Notes: generated by a model from the sequence alone, not told the origin. 64,000 nt of DNA from Macrostomum lignano (GCA_002269645.1 NIVC01002967.1:62001-126000), one strand, 5' to 3'; positions 1,831-56,982 are shown, numbered from the stretch's first letter. A program made the numbers and translations.

Positions 1831-1956
1831 ATTAATTTAATAAGCCTATCAGAAGGCCGAATGTATATTCGAAATGAGTTTTCAAATGTAGATTGATTGC
1901 AATATTTAATTATTTTACATTCCTTGCCGCACATAACTTTCTCTTAACTATTGCAG

Positions 1957-5869: not shown

Positions 5870-7520
5870 CTCGTGTCTACTGCTTCGTGACAGTCTATTT
5901 TTAAGAAACTTCTGAGATTCGAACAGTAAAAAAGTATGGCACATCGAATTTCAGCACGTCAACAAGATATGTAAATTTGAATTGTGTAGTAAATTCGAGC
6001 ATGCTAAACTGTAGAATTTCACTACGCATTGAAATTTCCACACGTCCACAAGATATGTAAATTACACAGTACCGAAATTTGAACGTCGCAAAATGTCGAA
6101 TTTCACTACGCATTGAAATTTCCACACGTCCACAACATATGTAAATTAGTCAGTACCAAAATTCAAACGTTGCAAAATATTGAACTTCACTACGCATTGA
6201 ATTTAGCTACTGGGAATAATTTCCTATGGAAATAAGTTACCCACCCCGACTGCTTGGCGGCCAATGTGCAGTTGCGAAAAACTGACGCGGATTGGTAAGT
6301 CGAACTCAGATTTTGGCGAAGTCTGTGAATTCAAGAAAATTAAAATTACCCGGCGACTAACTCAATCGACTGGATATCAGTCCAGCAGGCTCTACTTTGA
6401 GTGGCGCCGGTCAAAGTACTTCCCAGAGGTCTCACGGACGAAGAAGAGTATTTTGGTACCTTCCGAATTTCATACACATCTTATGTAGCAAACTCTATGG
6501 GTAGTAAAATGATTTTGCTACGTATGTGAAATAAATACACACCCAGTGTACCCAACTCTTAGCTAGGAAATTCAATTTTGGCCTAAAAACTCTTCAGGCG
6601 CCGAAAAGGTCTCCATCGTAATCAGCGCATTGAATTTAGCTATTGTGACTAATTTCCTATGGAAATAAGTTACCCACCCCGACTGCCTGGCGGCCAATGT
6701 GCAGTTGTGAAAAACTGACGCGGATCTGCAAGTCAAACTCGAATTTTGGCAAAGTCTGTGAATTCAAGAAAATTAAAATTGCCCGGCGACTAGCTCAATC
6801 GACTGGATATCAGCCCAGCAGGCGCTGCTTCGACTGGCCCCGCTTAAAGTACTTCCCTGAGGTCTCAGGGACGAAATAGGATATTTTGCTACGCTTCAGA
6901 ATTTCGTACACATCTTGTGTAGCAACGTGTATGGTAGTAAAATGATTTTACTATGTATCTGAAATAAATACACACCCAGTGTACCCAATTCTTAGGTAGG
7001 AAATTCATTTTTGGTCTACACACAAATTCAGACGCCGAAAAGGTCTGCATCGTAAGCAGCGCATTGAATTTAGCTAGTGTGAATAAAAAATACATAAAAT
7101 TCCAACTTGACTCTCGTGTCTACTGCTTCCTGATGCTTTTTTTAAGAAAGTTCTGCGATTGCAACATTAAGAAAGTACTGCACATCGAATTTCAGCACTT
7201 CAACAAGATATGTAGATTAGACTTGTGTAGTAAATTCGAGCATCGTAAATTGTAGAATTTCACAACGTTTTGAAATCATCCTACGTCAAGCAGGGACGTA
7301 AGGTAGAGGGTAGCAAAATATTGAATTTAACTACGCATAAAAACATTCATACGTAAAAGACATCGTCAAAAGAAGGGTAGCAAAAAATAAACGTAGTAAA
7401 TTGCATAATTTTGCTACGCAACAAGATTTTCATACGTAAAAGACATCGTCAAAAGAAGGGTAGCAAAAAATAAACGTAGTAAATTGTATAATTTACTACG
7501 CATCAAGATTTTCGTACGTC
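5870..7520. repeat. Complex repeat block: two ~433-bp direct copies (6193-6625, 6626-7059), flanking ~150-bp direct repeats (~5870-6025, ~7110-7265), and ~83-bp subrepeats
   Basis: CGCATTGAATTTAGCTA at 6193, 6626 and 7060; CTCGTGTCTACTGCTTC at ~5870 and ~7113; CATACGTAAAAGACATCGTCAAAAGAAGGG duplicated at ~7348 and ~7431. Confidence 0.85.
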
Positions 7521-7529
7521 AAATGGTAT

Positions 7530-9100
7530 TTAAAGAAGAGAGTAGCAAAATTCGCGAAAAGAAAAATATTGAAAATACAGCGACCAGTTCATCCCAATTC
7601 TGCTACTGTTAAATCCACGGAAACGGTTGGCATTGGAAACGATAAACAAACGCATTTCCCGAATATTATTTTCCCCTATTAGGGCCCTTCTTATCCCAAA
7701 CAGAATCCCAAACAGATAGACACTTGTTTTCTGGATCGGGATGAATTTGGTTATGCAGATTAACAATGAAGCTATAGTCGTAATCACTCACTCCAAGTAC
7801 ATCCGAGTAATTATATTCCACCGATTTAGTAACGTAATCGTCGTATCTATACTCGCGAAACTCACCTGTAGCGAGATCATTTACTCCATCGTTAAACCCT
7901 AGCAAATTCCATTTCATATCGAATTCAATTTCATTGTTAGTAAACCTCTCTTTGAACAAAGTAGTTACCTGTTTGAGCTTGTTGGCTCCTTGTATTGAAT
8001 TTATATTCTTCATTGTACTCTGTAGTTTCTTTTCAAGTGCTTTTAACTTCTCTTTATCATCAGCCGCCTTCTCAATTGCAATTTCGAGTCTAGTCTTTCG
8101 GTGGTTTAACTCACTGCTAACAAGGTCTGATATTTTAAGAAATATGTCATTTATACTACTTAGTTCTCTCCACTCATCATCATCAAAATAGTAAATACCA
8201 TCGCTATTGTAAATTATATTATTTTTCTTATATTCATAAACAAAGTTGGTTATGTTAACGTCAGTGAAATTATCATCAAGATACTCAATTCTACCATAAT
8301 AATCATATTTGCTTTTCCATTCCTTATATTTGTTATAGTTTTCTTCACTTGCCCATTTCTTTAGTGTACCGATAGTAAGTCTGTCCTGTGCATCAGCAGA
8401 GCTGGCACTGGTGCTATTCCACAGCTTCTCACATGCCTCGGAATCGAACCTATTATAATTTGCTTTTGACCAATTAGTGAATACTTTGTACATTTCATCA
8501 CCACTGTCTATGTCGCGGAGTATAAGTGCTACCTTGTACCAAGAACCATAGTCTTGGTTTTTGTGTTGTATTATACTTAACAACTTTGAAGCTCCTTCAC
8601 AAGTGGGGGGTGGAACGGTGCTTTTTAGTGCCTGTTTATCGGGTTCTTGGTTTTCTTTTTTATCCTGTGGCTTAATTAATCTATTTATCTCATCAAGAAT
8701 TACATCTGTCCCTCGCACTTTGTACGTTTGTATTCCTTCATTTCACCATCCACATAATAGAAACCTGGTGGAGCAAATACTAAAGCCGGAATATCAAAAC
8801 CCACACTTTGTTGAATCGTTACTTTTAATCCATCTACCTTGTTAAAGTAAAAGTGATGACCCTTGTTTGTCTGAACAATCCAATCACAATGAGTCATACA
8901 CAGTTCAATCAACTCAGGGCATAGGTCAGCATTATCAATATCGATTACGGTTATATTTGAGATTTTCGTATCTATCCAAATCATGTTGTCTGCCTCTGGT
9001 CGAAATGGTGGGGAGGTTGAATTCCTATCTGCTTTGGTTGGCATTCCTGACGGTATTTTTTTCTTTGTTTTACTATTCCATGTTATACTGCAACTTCCGA
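7530..9100 (-). pseudogene. Viral-type primase-helicase remnant (AEP/Prim-Pol + PriCT-2 + D5_N), frameshifted and truncated before the SF3 ATPase
   Basis: ORF 8700..9044 has AEP motifs ITVIDID and QTNKGHHFYF. After a frameshift at ~8720, ORF 7666..8718 has PriCT-2-like YGSWYKVALIL..FTNWSK..CEKLWNS..TIGTLKKWA and D5_N-like NLLGFNDGVNDLATGEFR..DDYVTKS. A third frame gives ALIGENN, but no Walker A follows. Intronless. Confidence 0.8.
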
Positions 9101-10160
9101 ATCTAAAATTAAGTTCTCTATAGAGATTAATTAGTTAATCGTAAGATTTTGTTTGTTTTAAATTTGTCAATCTTGGTGGTGGGGCATCATGGTTTTGAAG
9201 CGGATCCTGTACGATCACAGGAGAGACACTTGAATCATTCTGATTTTTTCTTTCCATTTTATTAAAAATAAATTTAACAATATATTGTAATTTATCGGTT
9301 TCAATGTACTTCTCACGGGTTATGGGGAGTTTAAAAATGTTCAGTTTCAGCATGACGAAAAATTCATCATTCCTTATGTGCTGTCTCGAAATCAATGCCC
9401 ATTTATCAACATGTGCAAGATATACTCTGAATGAATACAATTATGGGGGGCATTTACAATCGGTGTGTTTTAATATTTCTACTTTATATTCATCGTAAGC
9501 TTTATCAATTTCTTCAATTAGTCGAGCCTTTCGAGTGGGTGTTTTATTTGAGAGAAACTTACAATAGAATCATAGTATTTTTGTGGCAGAGCATTTCGAA
9601 CATTTGGGTTATTAGCTTCCAATTTTTCTAAGAAAAATTAGCAGTTACAATCTGGTTTTTGAATTCTGGTTTCGCTGATTGAGAGATTGAGACTGACTCA
9701 CACCACACTCCGCTGCCACTCTCCGAGACTCTCACAGGAGTTCAGTGTTTTTTCATCTTCATCAAACCCCCTTATTCAACCCATAAAAGACACTAGGGGC
9801 ACCCCTCATGCTAGCTGTCTTTCACAACAATTTATAGGCTGATGCAGGACTGGCACACTCACCAACTCTCAAACGTTATGCTAGTTATTTGTGTGTGTTT
9901 ATTAAAAGATACTCTCTATCTCAACTCGCACAACGAACGCGTGAGTAATTGTTAGAGATTCTTTGTTGAAACAAATACACTCACACACATATCAAGTTTA
10001 ACGCATGGCTCACACCCACACACTTTTGCTAGTTGTAACCTGTTATCGGCTGACTGCGACCCTCCCCTCCATCGCTATATTAGTTTTATTTAGCTTAGCA
10101 AGCAAGAGCAAGAGAAAATTTACTTTAGGTCTAGAATTCTATCTATACAACATATTTCAA

Positions 10161-10455
10161 ATGGCTTCTTCCAGCGATAGAAAGCTTCCATCTAAGATAG
10201 TTTCCACGATTAAGAGTATTAGCTCAAAAGACCAATCAAGTTCAGCAGTTGCAGTTAGTCGCTTGTCTAGCGAGGAGCAGAACTCATTACTGGAAAAACT
10301 GCGAAAGATTGAATGTGAGTCCTTCAAGAAGGATAAGAAGGAAGAGAAGAGCAAAGAGAGCGATTCTAAATCTATTAGAGAAAGCCGATTTATTGGACGC
10401 CTTATCGAAAAAATGAGAGGAGTGACAAACGAAGTAACAACTATCAAGACTCGGT
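10161..10455 (+). CDS. First coding exon of an orphan gene, now fused in frame to the LINE ORF
   Basis: ATG at 10161 (MASSSDRKLPSK...EVTTIKTR), not homologous to retroelement domains; ends at the left target-site duplication. Confidence 0.6.
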
Positions 10456-13400
10456 GTCTTGTTGCCTCGGTTTATATCCCAGGGGACAGAGACCCTGCTC
10501 CTGAGAGTTTACTGCGCCTCGCGCAGTACTGCGAGTCCCAGAACGCTGAGCTGTGCTTAGGGGGCGACCTTAACGCGCACCACAAGCACTGGGGCAGCAA
10601 AGATACCAACACTAGAGGAGAGGAGCTTCTGGCCCTCATCTTTAACACAAACCTCATGCTCTGCAACCGCGGCAGCACTCCTACCTTTAATAATGGCAGA
10701 TGGACCGAGGTCCTCGACGCCACACTCGTTACCCCAAGACTCTTTGACAGAGTTGAGGAGTGGAGAGTCTGGTCTGAGGAGCCCTCCCGGTCTGACCACT
10801 GCTTTATCGCCTTTAACATCGCGGACACTAAAACCCAGTCTCCGATCACTTGGAGGCGCAATATCCGCAACACTGATTGGGCGGCCTACAAGGCTGCCCT
10901 TGATCTGCACCTGCAGGAACTCACGGACTTACGTCCGATTGAGACCTGCGAGGATGTGGATCATATGGCTGAGACGCTGACAGGTTGCATTATTGCAGCC
11001 TACGTAGCGGCTTGTCCTGCTCGCGCCTACAAAGGCAAGACCTCGGCGCCGTGGTGGAACCCGGAACTGGGGAAACTCAGGCGGAAGGCCAAAAGCCTTC
11101 ATCGCCGTGCCATGAAGACCGGAAACCCGGAGGACATGGAGCTTTTCCGGCAAGCCTCCCGCAACTTCAAATCTGAAGTGCGCAAGGCCAAGGAATGTAA
11201 GTGGCGCCAATTCTGCAATGAATTAGATCAAGACAGACCTACTTCTAGGCTTGTCAAGGCCCTTACAATGGACAAAATGTCCAAATTAGCCATGATCAAA
11301 AAAGATGATGGCTCTCTTACTAAAGACCCTGAAGAAGTGCTACAGCATATGCTCAGCACATTCTTCCCGAGGGTACCTACTGCTAGACCGGAGCCCAACC
11401 ATTCGATGGATGGAGCCACCCTAGCGGCGGGCATTGTCACTGAAGACCTAATCGCTCGTGCGGTCAAAACCTTCAAACCCTTCAAATCTCCTGGACCTGA
11501 TGGTATCTACCCTGTTCTCCTTCGTGAAGCAGCCAAGATACCCTCGTTCCTGAGACTCACCCGCAATCTTATGCGGGCCTCTATCCAGCTGGGATACGTT
11601 CCCAAATGCTGGACTGAAGCTCGGGTAGTCTTTATTCCCAAACCTGGGAAGGGTGACTACCAAAGCGTCAAGGCCTTCCGGCCTATTAGCTTAACGTCAG
11701 CAATGCTTAAGCTCACTGAGAGGCTTATTCTCTGGCGGCTGCTGTCCTGCGAGCTGACAGCGATGCCCCTCAGCAATAATCAGCACGCCTTCCATACCGG
11801 GAGGTCGACTGACAGCGCCCTGCATGCGATTGTCGAGAAGATTGAAAGGGCGGTACTGGGTGACGGTTACGCTCTGGCTCTCTTTCTTGACATTGTTGGC
11901 GCCTTCGACAACGTTATCTTTGAAGCGTTTCAGAGGGCCCTTCAAAATCGCAAAGCTCATGCTACCCTCATACGGTGGATCATGTACATGATCTCCAACC
12001 GTACGGTCACTGCCCAACTTCTTGGGCAAACTGCCTCCACCAGAGTCTGTAAGGGTGGACCCCAAGGCGGAGTCCTCACCCCGACGCTCTGGAACCTGGT
12101 CATGGACGCTCTTTTGAGTGACTCCCGACCCGACCCCGTCTTCAAAGTCGGGTATGCTGATGACGTCACGGCCATTGTGGCAGGACCGTCTCCCAGCACG
12201 CTCAGGGATCTGATGCAGAGCTTTATCCGCAAAGCAGAATCCTGGGCCAATGACAATGGTCTGGAACTCTCTGAGCCCAAAACCGTTGCCATTATGTTTA
12301 CCAGCAGACTACGCTGGAACATACGTCCTCTGCAGCTCTACGGCAGAGATATTGCCTTCGCGCACCAGACCAGATGCCTCGGGGTCATACTTGACCACCG
12401 GCTCAACTGGTCCTCCCACGTGAAAGCAAAAGCCAAGCGTGCCTCAGCCATCCTGGCCCAGCTCCGACGAGCACTTGGCACTTCTTGGGGTCTATCCCCA
12501 AAGCGGCTTTGGTGGATCTATACTTCCGTAGTTAGACCTGCCATTACGTACGCCTCTGATGTCTGGATTAGCGCTACCCAGGTAAAAAGCCATGCAGACC
12601 TGCTCAACACGATCCAAGGCAGAGCGTGTAGGCTCATCTGCAACGCCACCAGGTCCACGCCCTTTGCTGGCATGGGGGCCTTCCTTAATATTCCGCCTCT
12701 TGACCTCTTCATCAGGGGTGAGGCGGCTAGAACGACGCGGCGTCTAATTGATGCCGGCGTCAAATTCATTTACATGAGAGCACCTGCTAAGCGGAACCTT
12801 GTCCCGCATAGCGATCTGTGCCTCAACTTTCTCAACGAGTGTCAGGCCAATCGCGTCTTCACCGATGGCATTGCCTCAACGCTCAACCTGAGACAGCGCT
12901 ACTCCGTAGCTATCGACTCGCGCGATAACATCAATGACCAATGGAACCCTGGTGAGCTTCATTGCTACACCGACGGTTCTAAGCAGTCAGCCAACACCGG
13001 CTTTGGTGTTGGAATCTTTCTGAACGGGAGGGTCATCGCTACCCACGCTCAATACACTGGGGTCAACTCCAGTGTTTTCCAAAATGAAGTTCTGGCCATC
13101 AGCTCCTGCACTGCAGAGCTTCTCGCCACTGGCGTTACTGGTAAGAACATCATTTTCCATTCGGACAGCCTAGCTGCCTTGCACGCCATCAGTGGCTGCA
13201 GCACCAACTCTGCTACAGTCCTCGACTGTATCAAACTTCTCAACGTGTTGGGTTCCGCCAACAAAATTACCCTTAAGTGGGTTTCGGGGCATGTGGGGAT
13301 CCGAGGAAATGAGTTGGCTGACACCCTTGCAAAAGTTGGTGCCTCCGGCTCCTCTCTCGGCCCCGAACCTCTTGTCCCGATTCCTGGCTGTGTCATCGAC

Positions 13401-13973
13401 TCGCGCATCAAAGCGTGGATCAGGACTCAGCAGACTTGGGCGAACCGCACGAACTGCAGACAATCCAGAGGCGCTGTCCCTCAGCCCTCTCACCAGCTCC
13501 GGAAGCTCCTCTTGCGCCTCTCGCGCAGAGACATCCGGGCTGCCACCATGACCCTCTCTGGTCACGGCTGCTTCTCCAGGCACCAGTACCTGCAGGGCAA
13601 CGCCACCAACGCCACCTGTAGTTTCTGCAACTCAGGTGACGAAACCGCTGAGCATTTTGTCAGCATCTGTCCCGCCTTCACGCGGGCCAGACTCACTTAC
13701 CTCGGGCCACACACATCTATTACTGAAGCGTGCAAACCCGAAAACTTTAATCAGCTCATGCGCTACCTTCGGGCCACCCGCAGGGCTGAACTCTCCTTTC
13801 CAGAGAGCACCATAGCTGCTGGCGACACTGGGGGACCTCCCTGGGCGGCGCCAACCCTCCGTCCATAGCGACGCGTCGGCCGTTCAGGGACTAGCGGAAT
13901 GGGCGCCCGCGCCTTCCCGCTGTGTCCCCTCCGGGACAGCCCTGCAGCTAAGTCAAGTCAATCAAGACTCGGT
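10443..13973 (+). mobile_element. 5'-truncated non-LTR retrotransposon (I/R1/Loa-like) with partial APE endonuclease, RT, RNase H and C-terminal CCHC; 13-bp TSD
   Basis: Uninterrupted ORF to 13868 with GGDLNAHHKHWGS, SDH, PWWN, KSPGPDG, FRPISL, FLDIVGAFD, PQGGVLTP, YADD, YTDGSK, HSDS, WVSGHVGIRGNELAD and C-x2-C..ETAEHF..C. ATCAAGACTCGGT at 10443-10455 and 13961-13973; AAGTC-repeat 3' tail. Confidence 0.97.
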
Positions 13974-14047
13974 AAGTTTCAGTTTCATTCTCCATAATTT
14001 CATTGAATAAAAGCAAATATCATAACTTGAGTCTATTTTCATTATAG

Positions 14048-14521
14048 GTTCTACAACGCAAAGGTGTGCACATCTATCATTGGCGATGATGAGACTCGCA
14101 TGATCCAACGGTTCAATCAACTGGAGGGTTTCATCGCCGACCTTGAAGTGCTGGGTTGTATTGCCAGTAAGAAGAAGCAGAAGTAATTGCTGCGTTGCAA
14201 GAAAAACTCGGACTGAGCATTGAAGGAGTTGCGAGAAAGCTAGATATAGATGTGAAGTTTGCCCAGCGACTATTTACATTCTACAAGCTAACAACAAAGT
14301 ACCCGAGTCTGGTAATTTCTGGATATTGCTTTGAGACCCTTCTGACGTTCAAGAAGGCAATTGAACAAAGAGCATCAGAAGATGAGAATTTCGCATGCCG
14401 CCTCGAACTCGACATCGTACTGCACTTTGAAGGAGAGGATGACAGCATGCTTGATGAAGAAGAGAACGACACGATTGAAGCAGCCACTAGCGAAATGGGA
14501 AGCGCTTCTATTGATGAATAA
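14048..14521 (+). pseudogene. Downstream exon of the LINE-interrupted orphan gene (frameshift at ~14169-14183)
   Basis: Donor G|GTAAGT at 13972 and acceptor TTATAG|G at 14047 join in phase 2 (IKTR-FYNAKVC...). Frame A stops at 14184, and frame B continues as ORF 14195..14521. Confidence 0.55.
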
Positions 14522-15376
14522 ACACATGACAGACAAATATCCAGAATTTTTTCTGGACGTCCAGAAAAATTGACATGCTACTACTTAAAGTGACAATTAT
14601 CATTCAAACATTCACTCCGCGCTACTTACCTTAGTATATACCTTGAAAACAACTCTTTGAAATAAAGGCTGCCTTTGTGCTCCAGTGGAGCCACCCACTC
14701 TGTGTGTCTGAGAGTCTTTTGTGTTTGCTTCATTTATTTTTTTCTAATTCTAAAAATAGACAAAAATGTGCCACGTTAAGGGGTTCTGATACATCATCAG
14801 CATTGTGAGTCAGAGCTGTTGGCTTGCAAAAGAATACCCTCGTATATGAAATTCGCCAGGATACTTTCCACTGGAAAAGATGGGTGGTAGTTTTGTTATA
14901 GCTGACTGAATATCTAAGGCATTTCCTAGAAATATTGGTTTACTGAAGGCCATTTTATAATATATAAAATTTCCTATCGTTGAATTGGATGACACTTTCA
15001 TATTGTATATACCTGAAATTGCATTAAATTGACCCGTGAATCCAACTTTTCTCATGGTTTTAGAGTTGGAATCGTGAAAATTGCACTTTTTCAATTTTTT
15101 GAAAATCACAAAAAATCGCTGTTTTCAGACCATTTTCACCTGTTTTTAGTCAATTTTTCACTTATTTTTAGTGATTTTCAAAATGAGTGAGGGCATGAGG
15201 GCAAGGGCACCCCCCTTTTTAAAAAGTATAAAAATTCCGGAAAATCTGTGTTCTGTGAAATTCCACATGCCAATGCCCCCACATGCCCTCACCCTCAACA
15301 CCCTCACTCACAGATATATGTATATTTATGTATTTTTATATTTATCACACACCACTTGCAACTCTGACCTCCTGGT

Positions 15377-15476
15377 AGTAGTAGTATGTTATAAGGGGCT
15401 GAGTCATCCAGCGAGCTGGCGCGCAATGCGCCCGAGCAATCAAGTGTGGCGCAGCCCCTTATAACATACTACTACT
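15377..15476. mobile_element. 100-bp miniature inverted-repeat element with perfect 25-bp arms and (AGT)3 termini
   Basis: AGTAGTAGTATGTTATAAGGGGCTG (15377-15401) and its exact reverse complement CAGCCCCTTATAACATACTACTACT (15452-15476). Confidence 0.7.
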
Positions 15477-15782
15477 TGTACGTTAAAACATTTTATTATT
15501 ATTAGTAAAACTTGTGTTGCTAGAAATCTCATTGGTATCCTGACTCAATTCTTTAACTGTAAATACCAGAATTAGGGAAAGCAGGAAACTGGTGGCAGCG
15601 AAATCTACCAATATACCCCGAAAATCCACTAAGTTCTAAAGTAGAAAAAACCAGTAAGCCTAGACTGCGAGTACCACGCTTGTCCACCTTCGTGTACACG
15701 CATTTAATAATTATTTTCAACGTAATTTCTCCAAGGCAACCCCCAAAAACTCTGCCACACGCAGCTCCTAACGAGCAAAAGC

Positions 15783-15806
15783 AACAGCGGCATCAGCAAG
15801 ATGAGC

Positions 15807-15837
<31 letters not shown>

Positions 15838-15872
15838 GCAGCAGCAGCAACAACAGCAGAAGCAGCAGCAGT
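15783..15872. repeat. (CAA/CAG)n microsatellite
   Basis: Direct reading. Confidence 0.9.
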
Positions 15873-16618
15873 AGCGGAATGAACAGTTCTTACGAATCAT
15901 GTAGGGGCTAAAAAATGGAAACTTTGTTATACATAGATGCCAGCTGTTTGTTTAGCGCAGAAGACTAATGCAGGAGTTTACTTCGGGCGTGTCATAAGCA
16001 ATGCACTGATATAAAAGCAGACGAACTTGCAATCGTAGATAAACAAAATTGTATCAATCAACAACATCTCCCAATATCAATCACACACTGGTAGTGCTCA
16101 TAGAGCTTCTCCATCTCAGCTTGTATGTTTGTCCGTCATCTGCCAGAAACACTGCAACGCGGCCTGTTTGACCATGAAAGGTTGCTTATGACATTACTTT
16201 GACACACCCGAAGTGATTCTTCGTATTCCGTAGCCGTGGGAACCGCAATATTACCATATTGTACTGGTGTGAAGCCGTCGTCATTTTCCACTCTGCTGTT
16301 GAATGGGTCGCTGGTCTTGGGTCGCTCGTTTTTTTAGAACTGGACTCTATGCTTCACTATGTTAGCACTCCGACCTTATGTACAGCTTGAGCCTTCATTA
16401 CTAGTACTAAGCTAAAAGAGCAGAAGAAGCAGTGCATTAGGGAACAGTTAGCCAATAGTCAGCCGAATATGTACCACGACTCAGAGAGCGAATATGAGTA
16501 CGAAGATGCGGTGCAGTTTCTGCCAGTGCAACATGAAAATAATGAGCAGTTAATGCCAGTGCAAAATCAACATAATGAGCAGTTAATGCCAGTGCAAAAT
16601 CAAAGTTAGGGCAGCAGA

Positions 16619-17308
16619 ATGGAGGAAGGCGATCCGGAAGGAAGACTAGTTGTCGGCGTATATCTGGAGGAGTTGGAAAAAGAGACTGAGAGAAAGGAGG
16701 TCGAGTTTAGGGATGAGATGGCAAGATTCATGGAGGAAATTCGGCAGCAGGAGGAAGGGGTGGATCCCATCGACGAACCGGAGGAGACGGCCACAGACCA
16801 ACCGACGTGCCAGCTGGAGCAGTATCAGCCAGAGCAGTGCCAGCCAGAGCAGAGCCAGCTTGAGCCTGCATCAGATTCGCTCATAGATTATGCGACGCTG
16901 CTCAGGGTGGACTTGGGCGACAAGCCGGCCCCTGAGGAGACCAAAACCGGACGACAGGATAGCCCCGGTACACAGGCGTGGAAGTTCCGCAAGTGCCATC
17001 GCGACCTGAAACAATTTATCCTGGCCACGGGAAGAACGGGGCGGTTCGAGGCCCAGTTACCGGAGGCCTGCGTCCAGTTCCTAACCACGGCAACGCCAGA
17101 AGAGGCAATTAGGTGTTTCGAAATCACCTGCTCGTACTGCCTACAATACGCAGAAGGGAAGGCGCGGGGTCCAACTTGCATGAGGGCGACCGCCGAACAG
17201 CTCGAATTTATCGCCAGTCGGTTCGACCCCGTCCGCCAACTAATCCCAGTAAACGGACTACTTTACCTGTCTGCTCAGAATACTTTAAATCTCAGGCCAG
17301 TTAATTAA
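16619..17308 (+). CDS. Hypothetical 229-aa protein (acidic coiled N-terminus, Cys-containing C-terminal half)
   Basis: Intronless GC-rich ORF in AT-rich surroundings; no family recognised. Confidence 0.45.
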   Translation: MEEGDPEGRLVVGVYLEELEKETERKEVEFRDEMARFMEEIRQQEEGVDPIDEPEETATDQPTCQLEQYQPEQCQPEQSQLEPASDSLIDYATLLRVDLGDKPAPEETKTGRQDSPGTQAWKFRKCHRDLKQFILATGRTGRFEAQLPEACVQFLTTATPEEAIRCFEITCSYCLQYAEGKARGPTCMRATAEQLEFIASRFDPVRQLIPVNGLLYLSAQNTLNLRPVN

Positions 17309-17499
17309 GTAGACTAGGAAACCCAATCAAATAATAACCCTTCCAAGCAACATTATTAACACATGCTCGATGCCATCATATTTTCACATTTTACCATCCT
17401 TTGGAACATCTTCAAATCCGATGGTCAGCGTGGCTGACCATGCATCACTTTAGCTAAAATCCAACTCTTTATGGCCATAGACTTAACTTTTGTCTTCAC

Positions 17500-19948
17500 T
17501 TAACAGCATATCGCGAAAACCCATATGGTCAGCTTGGCTGACCATGGCTGTAAGTAGTCTATATGAAGTATAATAACGAGAAAACATGCATTCAAGCATG
17601 TCAAAAACTCAAAAATATCGTCAAAAATATCAAAAACATGAAAAAATTTTCACAAAAAACATGAATTACTAAAATTCCTTTTCTCACTCTGCTAAACGGG
17701 TGAAAGAGCATAGCTCGAAGCTGTCTGCTCAATCGCACCTGAATAGTAGGGTGCTGAACTAGTAAATAACGTTCTGTTTTCGACTTTTTGAAACTTTTTC
17801 AAGTTCTTAGTAGTTAAAACTTTGAAATGGTCTCAATATTTTGAATTTCTAGCTTCCAGATGTAGCATTGCTTTGAGTTCTTTTCTAATAAATTTTGCAA
17901 AAGATCCAGTAAATGTAGCTTTACTTCTGTTGCTATTACACTACCTAACTTTTATGCAATGTGAGGCAAGACAATAACAGGTAGTCGGCAGGAGTAAAAC
18001 GAACAACTCTCCTCTCAGCCTACGAGTGCCAGGCTCGAAAGCAGTCAGGGATGCACAAGCCGGGCTGACCCGGGCACTGCTGACAGACGAAGACGGTACG
18101 TTTGGTGATGCCATTGCGATAGCAGACTCTGCAGCGACGTGTTACTGGGCAAGTGAACAGCATCGGCAACAGGACGCGATGGGTGGACGCACCGTCTTTT
18201 TCCAGGCCCTGAGCTGTCTATCAGGGCAACGATCAGTTGTTCCATGAACTTCAGAAAAGTCAGTGAGCCGCCGGAGTGCCGGAACAAAATCCAGGCATTT
18301 TGCGACAGCTGCAATAGGAAATGAATTCCGAGCTTCTGGTGCCAGCGGTACATCTTTCTGCTTGGGTGGTAGGGCTGCAGCGCAGAGTCAAGGCGGTCGA
18401 CACCACCCATGGACTTTGAGTAGTCCGTCACAGTCACCGGCTTTCGAACAACCTCCATTTGTCCACCTCGTCTGTACCGTTGTCGCGCAGTGCTCTGGGC
18501 CGTACCGAAGGTGTCAAGCAGGTAGACTGTCTTAATACCGCTTGCTTTTCTGTCTGTCAGCTTCACTGCCAAAACATCACCGCTTCGCATGTAGCAGTGG
18601 GATGGAGGCACTGCTGGCATCTGCCGGAGCTCGACTGGAATGCCGCGGTCACAGCGAACGGTGCCTGTTAGTAAGGTACTGTGAGCTAGTAGAAACTCGG
18701 CCAGTCGTCGGGAGGAGAAATAACTGCCAACAAACACCCTGTAGCCAAGATTTAGCAGGTCCTTCGAAGCTCCACCACTATTCGCTCGCTGATGGACAGG
18801 TTGTAGTCGACGAATTCGCTGCCAAACTTGCTGTTTTCCTCAGCTGTCGAATGAACGAGGACGCTCCATAAGTAACCGGTCTTGGAGTCACAAAGACAAT
18901 AGGCCTTAATTCCATATCTAGCCCGCTTGCTGGGAATATACTGTTTGAACGCTAGTCGTCCTTTGTGCTGAACAAGCTCCTCGTCAACAGCGATGTCCCT
19001 GTCAGGCTGAAAATTCTGCTGACAAACTTCCTTTACTGAGTTCAAGAACGGGCGGATTTTGCGAAGCGGATCGTCATTGTCACCAACGCGACAGTCGTAG
19101 AACCTCAGAAAAGATAAGATTTGTTGGAACCGGTTTCGAGACAGGCAGTTTTCACTCAGGAACAACTGGTTGTCATAAAACTTTCCAGTGGCCCAGTAGT
19201 TTTTTATCTCTGGCTTGCGCACGATTCCCATGTAAAATATTATTGCGATGGTCTTTTTTATCTCATCATCTGCACAGTCTCTCCAATCGGTCAATCTCGG
19301 TGGCAGCTGCTGGTCATCCTCTTCGTTCTCAAAGATTCGCAGCTCCTCCCATGCGCGAGCATTGGTGAATTCTTTCAAATGACTAATAATGTCCTTCGTG
19401 AATAAGTTGAAAAAGAGTAACGGCTCATTTGCTGGTGCTTGAACACCAGGATTCATACCGTGGACTCCGAGAAACTCGGGAAGCTGCCCAGCTCTGTCAT
19501 CTTCTCCGTCGTTGACAATTGTCCATTCGTTTTCCTCATCCTTCATCTCCAAGGTTGGCTCCTCAATTACTTCAAAAACTGAGTCCTGATCTGACTCAGT
19601 CGATGAGCTGTTGGACTCGTCGCTTGTAAGAAGTTGATGAAGACTCATTATTACTTATCCGTCGAAATAGCAAATTATATGACAATTCTTCTTAAAATGA
19701 AGAGGCAAACAATCTAGATTGAATGTAAAGGAGAAAAATCTTTCTAGGGATAGTGACTTAGTAGGTACGAGGAAGGAAGGGCAGAAGCAGTCCACAGTGA
19801 TAGGTTCTATGGCTGAAACCCCAAAGCAGGTCACAGAGTGTTCCAAACACACTCTCTCAAGTAACGGGTTTTGGCGATGTTAAAGCAGCACTATAATTTT
19901 ACATAGCAGTAGTCTATGGTCAGCCTGACCATACGGGTTTTCGCTTAA
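17500..19948 (-). mobile_element. piggyBac-superfamily DNA transposon (defective)
   Basis: Imperfect inverted ends GCGAAAACCC(A/G)TATGGTCAG..GCTGACCAT at 17513-17545 and 19916-19944, with TTAA at 17500-17503 and 19945-19948, bracketing the transposase. Confidence 0.8.
18020..19648 (-). pseudogene. PGBD4-like piggyBac transposase, two frameshifts (~18770, ~18145), second catalytic Asp lost
   Basis: DDE_Tnp_1_7 motifs LSRNRFQQILSFLRF, VDEELVQHKGR..KQYIPSKRARYGIK and YSKSMGGVD. The DNxF/Y motif reads VGSYFSS. A third frame gives the Cys-rich tail RRCRVCYRNG..VFVCQQCPGQPGLCIPDCFRAWHS-stop. Confidence 0.92.
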
Positions 19949-19971
19949 TGTAGAGAAAATGCGCGGTCCAA

Positions 19972-20095
19972 ATTATTTGTTCACTTATAATCTGCCCATT
20001 ACATGCCCTTTGGACTGTACAGTTAACATTTTTGTTCACTTATAATCTGCCCATGACATGCCCTTTGGACTGTACAGTTAACATTTGTTCACTTA
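19972..20095. repeat. ~55-bp tandem repeat, ~2.3 copies
   Basis: TTGTTCACTTATAATCTGCCCA(T/TG)ACATGCCCTTTGGACTGTACAGTTAACATT repeated. Confidence 0.8.
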
Positions 20096-20127
20096 TAAAG
20101 CTGTTGTGTGAGTTAAAAATACACCAG

Positions 20128-20166
20128 ACCCTGAAGATGGTCATTGTTGGGCCGAAACGCGTCAGA
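20128..20166 (+). ncRNA. Minimal type I hammerhead ribozyme-like motif (stem I degenerate)
   Basis: CTGAAGA-T-GGTC attgtt GGGCC-GAAA-CGCGTC at 20131-20163; the core and palindromic stem III match, but stem I does not pair. Confidence 0.5.
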
Positions 20167-20554
20167 AGAAAGAATTTACTATAATCTATATTGATTTCAA
20201 CTTTTGTAATTGTAATTTTTTCTTACATTCTCTCAATGATGAACGTCAATACAAGCTCTTCACCATTGAAATCAACACCCATCACATCCCTGATTGCAGC
20301 GCATGGGCATTTTGGCGGACGGCGTCCGGCGCGGATCAGCCTGCGCGGCGCAGCATTGGTGCGGCGCGGCGCGATGTGGCGTGGCGCAACTGGGAGGTGC
20401 GGCGCGGTGGGGGGTGCAGCGCGGTGGCGAGGTGCGGCGCGGTGGGAGGCGCGGCGCAGTGGGAGGTGCAGCGCGGCGGGAGGCACGGCACGGCAAGGAG
20501 GCACTGTGCAGTGGGAGAGGTGCGGCGCGGTGTGTCGGAAGTTGCAGCACCGTG

Positions 20555-20650
20555 CTGCTGCTCACGGTGCAGGCACCCTACCGGCGAGGACAGGCGCGTA
20601 CTCAACGCTACATCGACTGCCTGCTGACTGATGCTGTAACGGAATCAGAA
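20555..20650 (+). mobile_element. Short 3' remnant of an RTE-like LINE
   Basis: LLTVQAPYRRGQARTQRYIDCLLTDA resembles the C-terminus of the remnant at ~60110 (LLTLQAPYQRRQTRTQR). Confidence 0.5.
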
Positions 20651-20820
20651 TGAATCGTAGAGCAAAGGCGGTGGTTTTTGGTCGTTCATTAATCGTATGA
20701 TTGAGCGACGAGAAGGAAAGGAAAAGAGCCTTGGAGGTTGCACGCCTTGGCTACGTGTATTTATAGTGTCCAACGGAAACTTCTGGAAAGTTCTATTGAA
20801 TTATAACAAAGTTAACATTC

Positions 20821-22600
20821 GGGAATGAATATGATGAAGTTGACCTGGCCTTTTTTGACGTCGTGTGGGATCCGCCGCACTGGTTAGACCTCATGGTACG
20901 TGATGTGCTGCGGTTGAGCCCAGCAATGCAGCGCACTGTAGCCGCCCTTCGCTGGCTACACAAAAAGTTGCAGCGCGGCAAGATGACCGTGGCAGCCGAC
21001 CAATTTGCGGCCATGTTGGAAGATCGCAAGGCGCGAAAGACGCAGTCCTTCAGCGCCACGCGCTTTGCGTCTTCAAACTTTGCAGTGGTCGAGAAGACCG
21101 TGTCGGAGCTGCCCATTTGGTTGGCAACCCTTTCCGGGACCAGCCGCCGACTGTCGAGAAAAGATCGCGACCGCCTGGCCTACCTGCAGTCGGCCCCATG
21201 CATAGTTGAGCTGCTCGTGCTGCATGATGTGCTAAAGCCGATTTGCGCAGTCATGCTGCGTGGGCAAAATCTTCAGCTGCCCGGTTGGCACGTAATCGGC
21301 GACCTGTCGGCACTGGCTGTTACGCTGGAGCAAATAAAGATAGGAATGCAGGGCCTGAACCAGCCCGACGCGAATCACGGCAATCAGTTGCACTTACACT
21401 ACATCGGCCCATCGGCCGTCACCTGCAAGAGCTGCGGAATGGTCGCTTCCGTAGCCTGGAGGTTACCACTTCGGCGGTCATTCCATTCCCCACCACTGGC
21501 AACGACGTCGACGGCGAAGAGTCGGCAGATTCGGATACAGAGTCCACCGACTCCGAGGACGCTGCGGACGCAGGTAAGTGAGGCAGTGTGTGGCACTGTG
21601 GTGTATTACTGTAATGATTAAATTTTTACCGTAAATTTTCCGATTCGACCGCAACTTCCAGGCTCCCATGATGAAGGCCAGTCTTGCGAATCTTGCGACC
21701 ACACGGTGGAAGCAGCCCTCAAGGCGTCGCTGGCCATGGTGAACAGACTTTGCGAGTCTTTAAGCCGCCGGAGCTCGGAATCCGTGCCGAATTTTCTTCA
21801 CCTGTTAGAGGCGTCTTTCGGGCTCCACGGCTACCTGCGAGCACTTTGCGGCAGTCGGCGGCAAGGAATGGTGCGGCTGCGCTTCGAAGGGGCCTTCCTT
21901 GTCCACGGCCAGCAGGCCTTCTGCGCAGCGGTCGGCGCAGCAAGAACAAGGCAATGCATTCGCGAGCTGCTGGCCGACTCCAACGCACTGCAGCTCCATC
22001 GGGCCTGGCGTGACGCCCTGTGGGCCATAGTCTGGGAAGATGACGCTGCTGCCAGGTGCTGCCGGCAGGTGAAAAAAGATATATTATTATATTTTGGTTT
22101 TTTAAATTGTTTTGAATTCCGATCTAGTCTCAGCTCAGCTTTACTACATCTCACAGGCAATATTCGGCACAGATTGCCCAGATGACCGCGTAATGATGAT
22201 GTCGGCCTCATCAGATTCCTCCGAGTCCGACTTCATGGTAGATTTCGGCGATGGTCCAGTGCCTTTACGAGTTAGTGAAGGAGCGTTCTGTGCTGCTATT
22301 TATCGAGAGCCCGCCGTCTACGAAAAATTTGGGACGAAGCTGTGCGCCCTATACGACTGGGCATTGGCGAAGCGCGGTCCCGAGGCAATCGTTGAGAGCG
22401 TCTACACCAGCATGAAGCGCCAGTGCCAGCAGGGCGCCATTCAGCTGGACGAGACGCTGGAGCTGCGGGCAAGGCTGGCGTGGCATTTGCCGCCGTCCGT
22501 CAGTTCAATGCCACAGACAGTGACTGCGATAGCCAAGGAGTGGCTGCGAAAAGCTAGTGGCGTTTTTCGTAAGACACCGGCAATCAGTGCAGCTACTTAA
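20821..22600 (+). pseudogene. Intron-containing hAT-like transposase, frameshift near 21390
   Basis: Exons ~20821-21573, 21662-22068 and 22157-22600 join in phase (CAG|GTAAG..CCAG|, CAG|GTGA..ACAG|). Motifs WDPPHWLDL (CxxH-like), SATRF (TRW-like), DVLKPI..MLRGQ and GPEAIVESVYTSM (hAT C-terminal ER/ES motif). Confidence 0.7.
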
Positions 22601-22619
22601 GTCTGGCGTACTTAAGCCA

Positions 22620-23252
22620 TGCGCTGCAATAGGGATCACATCTTCAGTCTGGAACTGTAGCACAATCTCGTGAATCTCCTTATTACTCGTTTCGCTTTCC
22701 CTTAATATTCGTTCGCTTTCCCGTAAAAAAACCCAATCAAGACTGAGATTACTTCTGATTCGAATATTCAAACCTTTTACAATGTCTGCAATATTGGGTG
22801 CTAAGAACAAACCGCTTACACTTTCCCGGGCCATGCTAACAACCCACGATGATTCTGGCGCTTCAGTTCCAGTCCGCGCCGTGGATTCTACCCTAAGCTT
22901 TCTGCTCAAATCCCAATTCCCTATACCAAGTGTCATCTTTAAACTCAACCTCCGCATCTTTGTGAACTCTCATTACAGTGAGATCATAGGCTAGTTTGAC
23001 AGGGAACAGTTCTGGCCTACTCAGATCAGGTGTCTTAAAATGGCCTCTTTTAGTAAAGACGTTTTCTAGAAAGTAATTGTAAATATCCACACTTTGCGTG
23101 CTCACAGGGAATACCACAGCTTCTGCTGCCACACCTTTCCATTTGTAATAAAACTTATTATTTGCTGCCGTCACATTAAGAACGTTTGACCAACCAGTGA
23201 ATCTTATTTCGCAAGGATCAATACCCCCGAAGACGTTGCAAAAACAGTTCAT
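22620..23252 (-). pseudogene. Polinton minor capsid (penton)-like protein, frameshifted
   Basis: WSNVLNVTAANNKFYYK and YRELGF, continuing in another frame as PNIADIVKGLNIRIRSNL; resembles the NI..xNNkFxY / LGF / sxDI pattern of Polinton pentons. Confidence 0.6.
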
Positions 23253-24067
23253 TTTCCTTATATTGCGGCTCGTCTTCTTGAAGAAATACTTCCATATTTA
23301 TCCTTCTTAAGTCAGATTTTCTGTGGCTGGATGTGGGGGGGGGTATAAGTTTACTTCTTTGTTTCTGTTTCAATGCAACAATGCGTTCCTTGAGAGTCGA
23401 AAGAGACGGCATGTTTTGGCAGAAGAGACATGCACAATTCTTCCTTGAATTTAATAAAGAAGACTATAGAAAGTTCTAGAAGAAAAAATTGCTGTCATGA
23501 CTATTTTTAAATATTCATAGAGGCAAACTAGGCGGACCAAATTCCGAGGCTGAGGCCGAATAGGCAGGCCAACTGGCCTCGCAATTTGGCCAATAATCAA
23601 TATCAGTCAAGGAGAGAATCCCAACATACACAGTCCATGCATGCTAATGGCGGCGAAGCGGTTGATTTTTTCCTTTTCTGCTTTTCTGGGAGAATGAGAG
23701 AATCCCTATTGTGCGCAACTCTTTAGGGAATAAAAAACTGTCCTTACTCAAATCCACACTTGGCACCCCCCCCCCAACATATTCTCCATCTGCTCAACTA
23801 AGCATAATTTGTACACTGCTTAAAAAAGCATTTGCACATAGCAGGCTACAACAGCGACAGCTATGTTTAAGCAGCTCACATTCTCTCAATGATCAACATC
23901 AATACAAACTCTTCACTGTTGCAGCAGTCTGCCTGTTTTTTTACTGGGCGCGTGCAATAGAAAACCTAACCTTTCTCCCAAACACCCCTCCAATCCAAAA
24001 AAATGAGCCCTATTTTTTGGCTTGAATAATTCTGCTCTTTCAACCCCCAGCTCTCTCAGCAGTCTTC

Positions 24068-24478
24068 CTAGTTCTTCATTAGGAGCATGCAATACAAAAC
24101 CCACCCCTTCTCCCAACAGCCGCCAATCCCCAATCCCAGATTTGTCCCACGAAAAATAACAGCTTTAACTAGCTTCCGAGTGATCGATTCCATCCACCCG
24201 CTTGAAGTCCCCATATTGTCTAGTCTCCTAAGCATTTCTTTGTCCCAGCAATTCTTCTCTGAAAAATCCCTATACTTAACGTCGTGCCACATGCAGACAG
24301 AGTCTAGCTTGTTCACCGGCTCATGCCCAGGATTTTGATTATTGTTTTTATCTAACTGAATTTCAAGCGGATTCAAAGACTCGCAATATTTGTAGCTGGG
24401 AATTGTCCAGCCTTCGTTTGGATGAGGAAGCTTTTCTATCAGTCCATGTGAATCTAAGTTACCACCAGAGCGTTGCAT
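24068..24478 (-). CDS. Parvovirus-VP1-type phospholipase A2 domain protein (Polinton/adintovirus PLA2)
   Basis: IPSYKYCESLNPL..EPVNKLDSVCMWHDVKY matches the PGYKYxGPGN..EPVNxxDxxAxxHDxxY signature; the HD dyad is kept and the Ca-loop glycines are lost. Confidence 0.85.
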   Translation of the reverse strand: MQRSGGNLDSHGLIEKLPHPNEGWTIPSYKYCESLNPLEIQLDKNNNQNPGHEPVNKLDSVCMWHDVKYRDFSEKNCWDKEMLRRLDNMGTSSGWMESITRKLVKAVIFRGTNLGLGIGGCWEKGWVLYCMLLMKN

Positions 24479-24502
24479 TTTATTAAAAATCTTCTTTAAA
24501 AA

Positions 24503-25358
24503 ATGACAGAGCAGAGACTTTAAAAGCTCTACTACAGCAACAAAGCATTCTTTTTAGGAAAAAATGCAGTCACCAAACTCGCAGAACTAAGTAATGAATC
24601 AAAGCAAATAGTTAAAAGATGGCTTTCCAAGCAAGCAGTCTACCAAGAAGTCTACTTCCTACCTCTTCAATTTACAACACCTCACTTTAGCATTATAAAC
24701 CTAATGAGGCGTACCAAGCAGATCTTGTTTCTCCCCAATGACTGAGGCTACAAGTATGCTCTCATAGTTATATACATTGCCTCCAGATATAAGGAAGCGA
24801 GACTACTCAAGACAAAGAAGTCAGAAGCAGTTGCAGCTGCCCTCCAAGAAATTAAAACTCTCCGCTCACATACCCCCAAACCTTTATGACTGATCCTAGA
24901 AAATAATTCATGGGTGCAGTCAAATCTCTTTTGGAAAAAACAATACGAAAATGTGCTACAGAAGAACTGAGCTCTACAGAGACCAGGCTTTTGTGGAAAG
25001 ATCCTATACCAAGTGGACAGAAAGACTCCCCACTGAAATAAATCAACTGAACAATGAAGCATCTCAAGTGACAAACCTGAAACCAATTACTGCCATCAAA
25101 CAAGACACAGTTAAATCAAAACATCAGATAGGAATATATTCTCCAGAAATTCTTACTTACTCTGAATTCGTTCGCCTCCTTTACTTACCAGGAGAGCTAG
25201 AAAAGGACACAAAGAGAAGAGCAACATACCCATACTTAAGTCTTGATGTACATAAGATAGATAGGAATTTCACATCAGCATCCAGTGATTACTATTTTCT
25301 ATCCCAAGCCTTAAATTCAAAAGCCCCACATGATCATTCACAAAGGCTGAGCTTCTAG
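24503..25358 (+). pseudogene. Polinton-type retroviral-like integrase (rve), multiple stops and frameshifts
   Basis: Across frames: KLYY..KRWLSKQAVYQ, PNEAYQADL, YKYALIV..ASRYKEA, FMTDP, QAFVER, LNNE..LKP..AIKQ, VRLLYLPGELE..RRAT. Confidence 0.9.
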
Positions 25359-25400
25359 TAATTCCACATGATACAGAAATAAATACTTTTTTTAAATAAA

Positions 25401-25808
25401 ATGATTGAAACCAGATCCGTGAATAAAATCAACAGAATTATCGAATCAAAGAAGCCAGGTGTTGTGTCAATTAAAGGTGTTAATGTCAAAGTAGATCCAA
25501 CACATAATATCACTGATGAGAAGACTGGCAAGATTCTTCCTTTGGCAACTCTAATCCCCATCCTAGTAGGCGCTCTTGGTTCCGCAGGAGGTGTAGCCAG
25601 CAGAGTTGCATCAGCTGTGAAGGCTTCCAATGACAGTGCACATCAATGAGAGATGGAGAAAATTGCTAGAAAAAAAGGAGTGAGAATTGGAGAAGGAATG
25701 GGTAGTTGTCCATCAGTTGATGAATCTGTTGACGAAATTAGCAAATCAGAAATTGTTAAAGCCATCATGACACTGCATAAAGCAGGATTTACAATATTTT
25801 GGATGTGA
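25401..25808 (+). pseudogene. Small Polinton core/pX-like protein with a premature stop at ~25647
   Basis: KTGKILPLATLIPILVGALGSAGGVASRVASAVKA hydrophobic Gly/Ala helix; the frame continues open after the stop to ~25808. Confidence 0.5.
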
Positions 25809-26879
25809 ATACAAAATAGAACAGAATCTGCTTCTTATTACAGCAGTAATTCCTTATACTTTACACGTCACTTGAGAGTGACCACCCTAAAATTTTTGTT
25901 AGTTTTTTAATTTTCATTTAAAATGTCTAAAGAAAATCCTGAAAAAAAATTATCGAATCTATCTTTCAAAATAATTATCCTTAAGCTCAAAAGTTTTAAC
26001 AAAAAGTAATGTTCTGCAAGATCTGTGCTAGAAGGCTTGGACAAAAATTGATTTTAGTCCAGGAGTAACATTGTAACAAATTTATAAAAAGCATTTTTAA
26101 CTATTCCAAGCACCGGCATATGGTATAACAAAAAAATTGTTTTAGTGCATGGTGCATTAGAAAAAAATGGGAGAAGTTTATTCTAGCGCACATGGTATAC
26201 CTTCCTGACTATGGTATTTTATTAGGTATATTTCCGATTTTTATAAAACCTAATATTGAGTAATTTATTCTCAAAGTTGCACATATATTTGTTTTTATAC
26301 AATTTTTACCTTATGGTATTCTCACTAAAGTCCCTATGCTATTTATTGCTTTAAAATTGCCAAAAATGAATTTGAAAAAACTTGCCCGGTTAATTTTTGG
26401 ATTTTGCCTTCTTTTAGGGCAGGCCCTAATTAAGGACTTCAATAAGATTTTGAAAGTTGAAAATGATATAGAAAAAATAAAAATTTATAATTCTAACACT
26501 CTCCTCTGGCTTTATCAAATGTATGTATAAAAATACAAAAAAAACTTTCAAAATCTTAGTGAAGTCCTTATCCTAATAAAGAAGTTGTAGACTACTTCAA
26601 GTTACAATAATTTTCATAGAATGAATTATAATAAACAAGCTGTTGAAACCCGCGGATTTTGAACCCGGGGAACTCCATTTCCCGGAATTATTTTTGCATG
26701 TATTCTAAAATCTAAGGTAAAACTTAAACAAAAACTTGTTCCCTTGTTAATAGTTAGGATAGAGTTAAACATAAAGTAGTGCACATTCATGTAAAATTAG
26801 GATTTGAGGCAAACATTGATATTGTTGGCTGGGGTGCTGCGCAGAATGTCAGGCAAACTCTGGCCTTTACGTACCTCTG

Positions 26880-28345
26880 CCTCTCCCTATGTCCTTTGCA
26901 TCCTTTGAAACTTCCATCTTCTTTTCTGTTTCTTATCTTCTCTCTCGTCTCTTCTTTTTCTCCCCTCTTATCTCTTCTTTCTTCTCTCCTCTCTCGTCTC
27001 TTCTCTCATCTCTTCTCTCATCTCTTCTCTCATCTCTTCCCTCTCCACTCTATTCTTTTCTCTCTCTTCTCTCTTCGCTCTGGTCTCTGGTCTCTCATAT
27101 CTCCTTTCTCCTGTTTTATCTTTTCTCATTTCTCTCTGCTCTCTACTCTCTCTTCCCTCACCTCTCTTCTCACTCCTTACTCTACCCTCTCTCAACACTT
27201 TCCTTATCTCTACTCTCTCCTTTTTCCTCTCTTCTCTCAACTCTTTCCTCTCCTCTGTCCACTCTCTCCTCTCATCTCTCTGCTCTCTCCTATCCTATCT
27301 CTCTTCTCTCTCTTCTCTCCCCTCTTTCCTCTCCTCCCTCGTCCTTTTCACCAATTTCCCCTGTCCTCTCGATTCTCTCCCTTCCCCTCCTCTCTCCTCA
27401 CTCACTTCTCATCTCTCCTCTTTTCTCTCTATTCCCCTATCTCTCGTCTGTTCACTCTCGTTTCTGCTCTCATCTCCCCTCTCTTATCTGTCATCTTTAC
27501 TCTCATATGTTCTCTCACCTCTCTTCCCTTGTACTCCTCTCTTTCCCCTTTTTGACTCAGGAGGACTCGATCCTTTCTTCTTTCTTCTCATCTCTTCTCT
27601 TCTCTCTTCTATACTCTCCCTCTCTTGTCTTCTCTCTTCTCTCTCACTCTCCTCTCTCCTCTCTTATATCGTCTGTTCACTCTCATCTTTGCTCTCTCAT
27701 TTCCCTCTCTCTTCTGTCATCTCTACTCTCCTCTCTACTGTGTACTCTTCTCTTTCCCCTCTTCTGACTCCTCTCTTTCCTTACTCCTCTCTTCTCTTCC
27801 CTTTTCTATACTCTCTCCCCTCTATTCTCTTTTCTTGTCTCTCCGCACTCTGCTCTCTCTTCCTTCATCTCTCATCTCTACTCTACTCTCTCATATTTCC
27901 TTTCATCTCACTCATCTCTACAATCTCATCTCTTTCCTCTCTCCTCCTCTTCCCTTTACTCTATCATCTCTCCTTTGTCCTCTCTTCTTTCTCAACTCTC
28001 TCTCTCTCTCATCTCTATCTTCTCTCTTCTCACTCGTCTCTCCCCCTTTTATCTCCTCCCCTCTATCCTTTCTAATCCCCCTCTCGATACTCTCATCTCC
28101 TCTTTGTTCTCTCATCTCACTCTTCTCTACTCTCCTCTCTCATCGATCCTCTGTCTCATCTCTCCCCTCTTCTCACCTTTACTCTTTCCTCTCCCTCCTT
28201 TCTCCCCTCCTCTCGCTTCTTCCTCCCTTCTTCTCTGCTCTCTCCTCACCACTTGTCTCTCCTCTTATCTTCCATGTTTTCTCTTATCCCCGTCTTGCCT
28301 CTCCTCTCTTCTAATAGTCTATTCCTTCCTTTCCACTCTCATCTG
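26880..28345. repeat. ~1.45-kb polypyrimidine (CT-rich) low-complexity tract
   Basis: Degenerate CTCT/TCTC/CTCTT runs with very few purines on the + strand. Confidence 0.95.

Positions 28346-36595: not shown

Positions 36596-56982
<20,387 letters not shown>

Follow-up and report, generated by a model that had tools for sequence, protein, structure and literature searches.

A broken and rearranged gene block in animal DNA, likely a fragment of an integrated Polinton/adintovirus-type virus

Does a compact cluster of virus-like reading frames in an animal genome derive from an integrated double-stranded DNA virus, and what is left of such a virus at the locus? We address this question for a block within a stretch of 64,000 nucleotides, analysed at its full length and referred to here as the window. 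A spliced FHOD-type formin gene, a LINE, a piggyBac-type transposase and many tandem repeats identify the window as animal DNA. A sequence-only reading had placed a decayed Polinton/adintovirus block with penton, PLA2, integrase and pX-like genes at positions 22,620 to 25,810. Our analysis supports this proposal, and all four gene calls stand, the pX-like call being the weakest. Remnants of four viral genes lie close together at the locus, and all but the PLA2 are broken. We put the probability at about 0.88 that the block represents a fragment, now broken and rearranged, likely from an integrated Polinton/adintovirus-type DNA virus, in a copy that is predicted to form no particles and to be unable to move by itself. 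The earlier conclusion that these genes point to an integrating double-stranded DNA virus is likewise strengthened, since both the penton assignment and a partial co-occurrence of the genes elsewhere survived as far as the tests could be run.

The body of the penton, a single jelly-roll minor capsid protein, lies at 23,201-22,635 on the minus strand. Its first ~56 codons are absent, at least one frame break falls near 22,820-22,900 and ~20 residues are missing near 22,700. Consistent with the truncated start, the body aligns with the intact relative P0005 (tblastn E 8e-41) from residue 57 of the latter onward. The fragment 23,252-22,896 retrieved six relatives among 1.84 billion representatives, and P0005 used as a query retrieved 13 others, 11 of them new. 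The predicted model of P0005 (pLDDT 81) has the mavirus penton as its top fold match (Foldseek E 4.8e-10), followed by the adenovirus and Sputnik pentons. In a wide structure search the best match is again the mavirus penton (PDB 6g41, 6g42; 12-14% identity, Z 12.4, rmsd 10.1, 232 aligned), with chains of PBCV-1 (6ncl_a6, Z 12.3) and Sputnik (3j26_N, Z 11.7) tied with it. Because of these ties the fold of P0005 is that of a penton, not specifically that of a virophage. Judged from this model, which is of the intact relative and not of the window pieces, the earlier penton assignment passes at the structural level, and the single jelly-roll penton that characterizes Polintons/Mavericks (adintoviruses) is represented at the locus. 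Searches by sequence were less informative: the penton profile gave two matches among solved-structure sequences (E 1.4 and 2.2, one of them the adenovirus penton), none of three penton queries found a true relative in the viral contigs, and a metagenome scan with the penton alignment gave no relative among 158 candidates.

The last 21 codons and stop of the penton are found at 20,288-20,223 (-), 2.35 kb to the left of the start proposed before and past a 2,346-bp insertion. This tail matches P0008 (tblastn, 77% over 22 aa, E 1.8e-7) and P0005 (64%, E 5.5e-4) and is recovered by a profile match with E 4.7e-4. Of the limits first given for the block, the right one agrees with the end of the pX-like frame at 25,808, while the left one has to be moved, as 22,620 falls within the terminal repeat of the inserted element and the penton continues in its tail at 20,288-20,223. 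The sequence at 19,949-20,222, between the penton stop and the end of a piggyBac-type element, is high in depth, contains a 55-bp tandem repeat and may belong to the viral family. The piggyBac-type element itself (17,513-19,948) has a frameshifted transposase (PF13843), 20-bp inverted ends and a TTAA on the right side only.

The insertion that separates the penton body from its tail (20,289-22,634) is bounded by imperfect terminal inverted repeats of ~18 bp and flanked at either end by the same 8 bp in direct orientation (20,281-20,288 and 22,635-22,642). An 8-bp target duplication combined with short terminal inverted repeats is a trait of hAT elements, and the insertion, which carries both, is likely a hAT-type DNA transposon. 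Its ORFs look spliced and are without a clear Pfam family, and no hAT family was matched by Pfam in the insertion. In Atlas searches, in which scores under 0.9 are leads only, the top matches of these ORFs were unnamed (0.92), followed by two hAT-related ones, FAM200/GTF2IRD2-like (0.88) and a cluster with 25% Dimer_Tnp_hAT (0.86). We aligned four sequencing runs from four studies (X1, X2, X6 and X11) to 19,700-26,900 at 80% likeness. The insertion shows single-copy depth inside and high depth over its GC-rich left end, which contains a 17-bp minisatellite. Contigs in two of the four runs (X1, X11) join 20,284 to 22,639, with just 28 letters on the short side, so copies without the insertion exist.

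The parvovirus-type PLA2 is an open frame of 136 codons at 24,478-24,068 (-) and the only one of the four frames that is free of stops and frameshifts. Its match to PF08398 (E 1.2e-7, 32.3 bits) exceeds the curated cut-off of 23.9, as the earlier call would have it, and is the sole match within the block in a six-frame Pfam scan. The translation retains the HDxxY catalytic motif and lacks the YxGxG calcium loop (motif definitions from PMC3626588), and because this loop is absent the copy is likely inactive, as far as its sequence indicates. The ORF has no pX tail, and Pfam gave no Adeno_PX match in it at E<=1. Comparison with solved-structure sequences returned just two weak secreted-PLA2 matches. 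The single locus found with the PLA2 query in the viral contigs was rejected as a 12-residue match inside an unrelated gene.

The undamaged frame and the preserved HDxxY motif would fit a gene that was co-opted and kept open by the host while its neighbours decayed. However, the calcium loop is missing, the end of the PLA2 runs into a duplication, and a frame this short may plausibly stay open by chance; we regard co-option as very improbable. The duplication at the PLA2 end is an imperfect direct repeat within 23,922-24,129 (23,922-23,996 and 24,057-24,129, 77%). An 83-codon open frame at 23,913-24,164 (-), which contains a segment repeated twice, 45 codons apart, overlaps the PLA2 end and may derive from a gene that once followed PLA2.

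The integrase is an rve (DDE) pseudogene at 24,503-25,399 (+) with five frame breaks, three in-frame stops and a 24-residue gap. Its largest open piece retrieved four proteins among 108 candidates, all four of 326-333 aa with PF00665, which cover 24,503-25,384 spread over three frames. The remnant shares 188 of 287 aligned residues with P0001, which passes PF00665 with 33.2 bits against a cut-off of 32.6. This match to intact rve proteins confirms the integrase call and provides, through a pseudogene, the retrovirus-like rve integrase of Polintons/Mavericks (adintoviruses). The integrase query had no true relative in the viral contigs. The breaks within 24,574-24,838 and 25,014-26,458 are real, because gap-free contigs match the window there (X2 and X11, and X6 to 24,803, over the first interval; X1 over the second). 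Contigs from the four studies show the same breaks as the window wherever long pieces cover them, and assembly error was rejected as their source in these parts; the breaks at 24,858, 24,904 and 24,950 and those in the penton body lie outside the gap-free contigs listed.

The PLA2 and integrase genes are divergent with start codons 24 bp apart, in line with the ~25 bp estimated before. In contrast, the gap between integrase and pX-like ORF is 1 bp and not ~40 bp: the last integrase frame stops at 25,397-25,399, directly ahead of the pX-like ATG, and the larger value came from a shifted-frame stop at 25,358.

The pX-like ORF stands alone at 25,401-25,808 (+); its 135 codons are interrupted by a single stop at 25,647-25,649. 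Read with X at this stop, it retrieved one protein among 21 candidates, the intact 144-aa P0022, which is 42% identical (61/145) over nearly the whole length. While P0022 matches Adeno_PX with E 8.8e-4, its 19.6 bits are below the cut-off of 25, and the first 82 aa of the window's own ORF have no Adeno_PX match in Pfam. The pX-like label, drawn from one 42% relative with a below-threshold domain match, is plausible and the weakest of the four. P0022 has no match among solved-structure sequences, and the pX-like query found no true relative in the viral contigs. Haemagglutinin-repeat leads for this ORF from Atlas, with scores below 0.9, were rejected.

Other copies of the family to which the block belongs were examined through the contigs of sequencing runs. 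Part of the block is present in 20 of 24 listed runs, all from one organism (host organism A), and the four aligned runs are among these 20. In the following, depth is a sum over contigs and not a copy number, and the joints and contigs reported are among those listed. Over 20,664-22,591 the depth is flat (X1 20-33, X2 24-32, X6 206-317, X11 10-18); X11, perhaps RNA, also covers this single-copy flank evenly. Over the penton it reaches 6,123-9,074 (X1), 575-2,309 (X2), 39,092-68,606 (X6) and 133-438 (X11), over PLA2 5,924-7,996, 2,360-2,753, 47,058-88,658 and 339-356, and up to 25,242 in the integrase the values are 1,736-3,252, 415-1,275, 6,999-25,165 and 116-172 in the same order of runs. 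In all four runs the penton, the PLA2 and the 5' part of the integrase therefore have roughly 6 to 400 times the depth of 20,664-22,591. A single X2 contig alone has a depth of 840, compared to ~25 for the flank, and many family contigs are at 95% identity or more. The family thus seems to be abundant in the host organism, and the block is one of many related copies in it. In three of the four runs (X1, X2, X6) a joint from 22,636 to 24,925 links the penton to the integrase in another, deleted copy. The expectation that the ORFs co-occur in other copies therefore holds for the penton and the integrase in at least one of them, while none of the contigs listed spans all four genes in another copy.

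Two parts of the block are close to single-copy depth, the middle of the pX-like ORF at 25,484-25,724 (X1 44, X2 37, X6 223, X11 17) and 23,315-23,555 (X1 58, X2 55, X6 365, X11 24). The depth profile might reflect the recent spread of a short non-autonomous derivative, with the block as one copy of it; such a derivative would retain parts of penton, PLA2 and integrase and be mobilized in trans by complete elements. The raised depth ends at ~25,240 and resumes at 25,725-25,965, and several deletion joints exist (22,636 to 24,925; 20,281 to 22,966; 22,814 to 23,137), as expected for such a derivative. Yet no terminal repeats flank the block, and the junction at 23,315-23,555 is near single-copy, so that the exact arrangement in the window is not the amplified one. 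We consider this derivative unlikely, and note that the best explanation and its rivals partly overlap.

The region between penton and PLA2 (23,202-24,060) consists of a low-copy stretch, a second penton tail and the duplication, whose repeats are spaced by 135 bp. The stretch at 23,202-23,875 is unassigned and has no Pfam match. The second tail (23,876-23,920, minus strand, 14 codons and stop) is 90% identical over 42 bp to 20,222-20,263 and matches P0008 (tblastn, 86% over 14 aa, E 0.017). Three X2 contigs track the window up to 23,201 and then continue into sequence that the window lacks. Given the loss of the penton 5' end, the second penton tail, the duplication and the unassigned stretch, the block does not correspond to a single collinear segment of its parent. 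The two penton tails, which differ by 10%, and the low-copy stretch imply at least one junction between different copies, and the central part of the pX-like ORF does not share in the amplification. These features would also suit a chance mosaic of at least two separate insertions, for example a virus-derived piece with a capsid gene combined with a Ginger-like integrase transposon and its neighbour. Such an origin is improbable in view of the gaps of 24 bp and 1 bp among PLA2, integrase and pX, the penton-to-integrase joint of another copy in three of four runs, and the description of all four genes from adintoviruses. A mosaic from two copies within one family would leave the verdict of a Polinton/adintovirus-type fragment unchanged.

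In agreement with the earlier observation that pPolB, major capsid, ATPase and protease are absent from the window, none of them was detected by Pfam in 155 of 206 filtered ORFs, which is a weak test in that it also missed the broken integrase and penton. Repeats, the LINE and the piggyBac element had been filtered first, and the Pfam search omitted 51 ORFs, every one of them past 38 kb in the part that carries host genes. When 72 ORFs from the environmental rve-integrase elements L002-L013 were compared with the window for these four genes, integrases alone matched. No pair of terminal inverted repeats with (AGT)2 or (AG)3 termini, accompanied by a 6-bp target duplication, flanks the locus. 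A 100-bp hairpin at 15,377-15,476 with 30-bp arms (93%) opens with (AGT)3, closes with (ACT)3 and has no 6-bp target duplication. Its (AGT)/(ACT)-type motif is the commonest Maverick end motif among those reported in PMC8097293. The hairpin is located 4.7 kb from the penton tail and may represent two element ends that have collapsed together.

Other features of the window lie apart from the block. An AT-rich, broken virus-type primase-helicase at 7,666-9,134 (-), 11 kb away, matches PriCT-2 (E 1.5e-11), D5_N (E 7.4e-12) and, below the cut-off, Prim-Pol (E 0.001); Pfam found no helicase domain after D5_N, and the primase query had no true relative in the viral contigs. An intact-looking LINE ORF of 1,288 aa with endonuclease, reverse transcriptase and RNase H occupies 10,002-13,868 (+). 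The exons of the host FHOD-type formin (GBD, FH3, FH2) span 39,436-53,858 (-), with several tandem arrays in the introns, and a single-exon protein kinase ORF of 465 aa is located at 62,292-63,689 (+).

Because polymerase, major capsid, ATPase, protease, terminal repeats and the 6-bp duplication are all missing, the parent could be another rve-integrase virus of MELD/PLV type. Bearing on the choice between the two, the integrases of L002-L013 are 36-42% identical to P0001, and these 12 rve loci have no PLA2 or pX-like match and one marginal penton match (E 0.046). L002, L005, L006 and L008, metagenome contigs 8-15 kb long in which large AT-rich ORFs accompany an rve integrase, are probably viruses of the MELD/PLV type.

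Penton, PLA2, pX and rve integrase are described as adintovirus genes in sections 3.1 and 3.2 of PMC8502044, and PLA2 is named in a figure legend on polintons and related viruses in PMC3671162. With the virion module of Alpha (Mayetiola-class) adintoviruses, as presented in PMC8502044, the block shares an animal host, the rve integrase, the single jelly-roll penton, a pX-like segment and a PLA2 that the PF08398 match shows to be of parvovirus type. In Alpha adintoviruses PLA2 and pX form one gene (PLA2X) according to the same source, whereas in the block they are separate, on opposite strands and with the integrase between them. The pX-like segment occupies its own ORF, as in P0022, and this separation, which appears to hold for P0022 as well, is the one notable difference from what is known. 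The block also resembles the degraded vertebrate Mavericks/Polintons described in PMC8097293 in its stops, frameshifts, large insertion, lost terminal repeats and many defective copies per genome, and in combining integrase and minor capsid in one element. In the vertebrate elements of that account these two genes are in a same-strand module, while in the block they face apart with PLA2 between them; the eight core genes given there for vertebrate Mavericks do not include the PLA2 that the block has.

We therefore file the locus as a fragment of Polinton/adintovirus type and neither as a complete member nor as Alpha class, because it lacks the terminal repeats and the PLA2X fusion. Formal family membership is withheld because the polymerase and the element ends are absent, and the locus is placed in neither Alpha nor Beta because searches yielded no PolB, hexon, FtsK ATPase or adenain. 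It is a dead piece of a Polinton-type family present in multiple copies, a genomic fossil of an ordinary, already known type.

By analogy with section 3.2 of PMC8502044, the parent element would have relied on its rve integrase for insertion into host DNA and on the penton for its capsid vertices; the pX-like product would have served as a processed core protein, and PLA2 would have assisted membrane crossing during entry. After integration, the replication and major capsid genes and the ends may have been lost from this copy. The copy may then have suffered a cut and a partial duplication in the interval from penton to PLA2 and accumulated stops and frameshifts, and a cut-and-paste transposon would have entered its penton.

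By itself the locus carries little weight, as decayed Polinton-type pieces are a common state, with 96% of the vertebrate Maverick loci surveyed in PMC8097293 being degraded. We hold it possible, though doubtful, that this host harbours a strongly amplified and as yet undescribed Polinton lineage in which PLA2 lies head-to-head with the integrase and a free pX follows behind, with some copies complete and particle-competent. Two aspects could have limited use: the apparent abundance of the family makes this host a place to seek complete elements, and the separation of PLA2 from pX, which departs from the published PLA2X fusion, bears on how the viral entry module was assembled.
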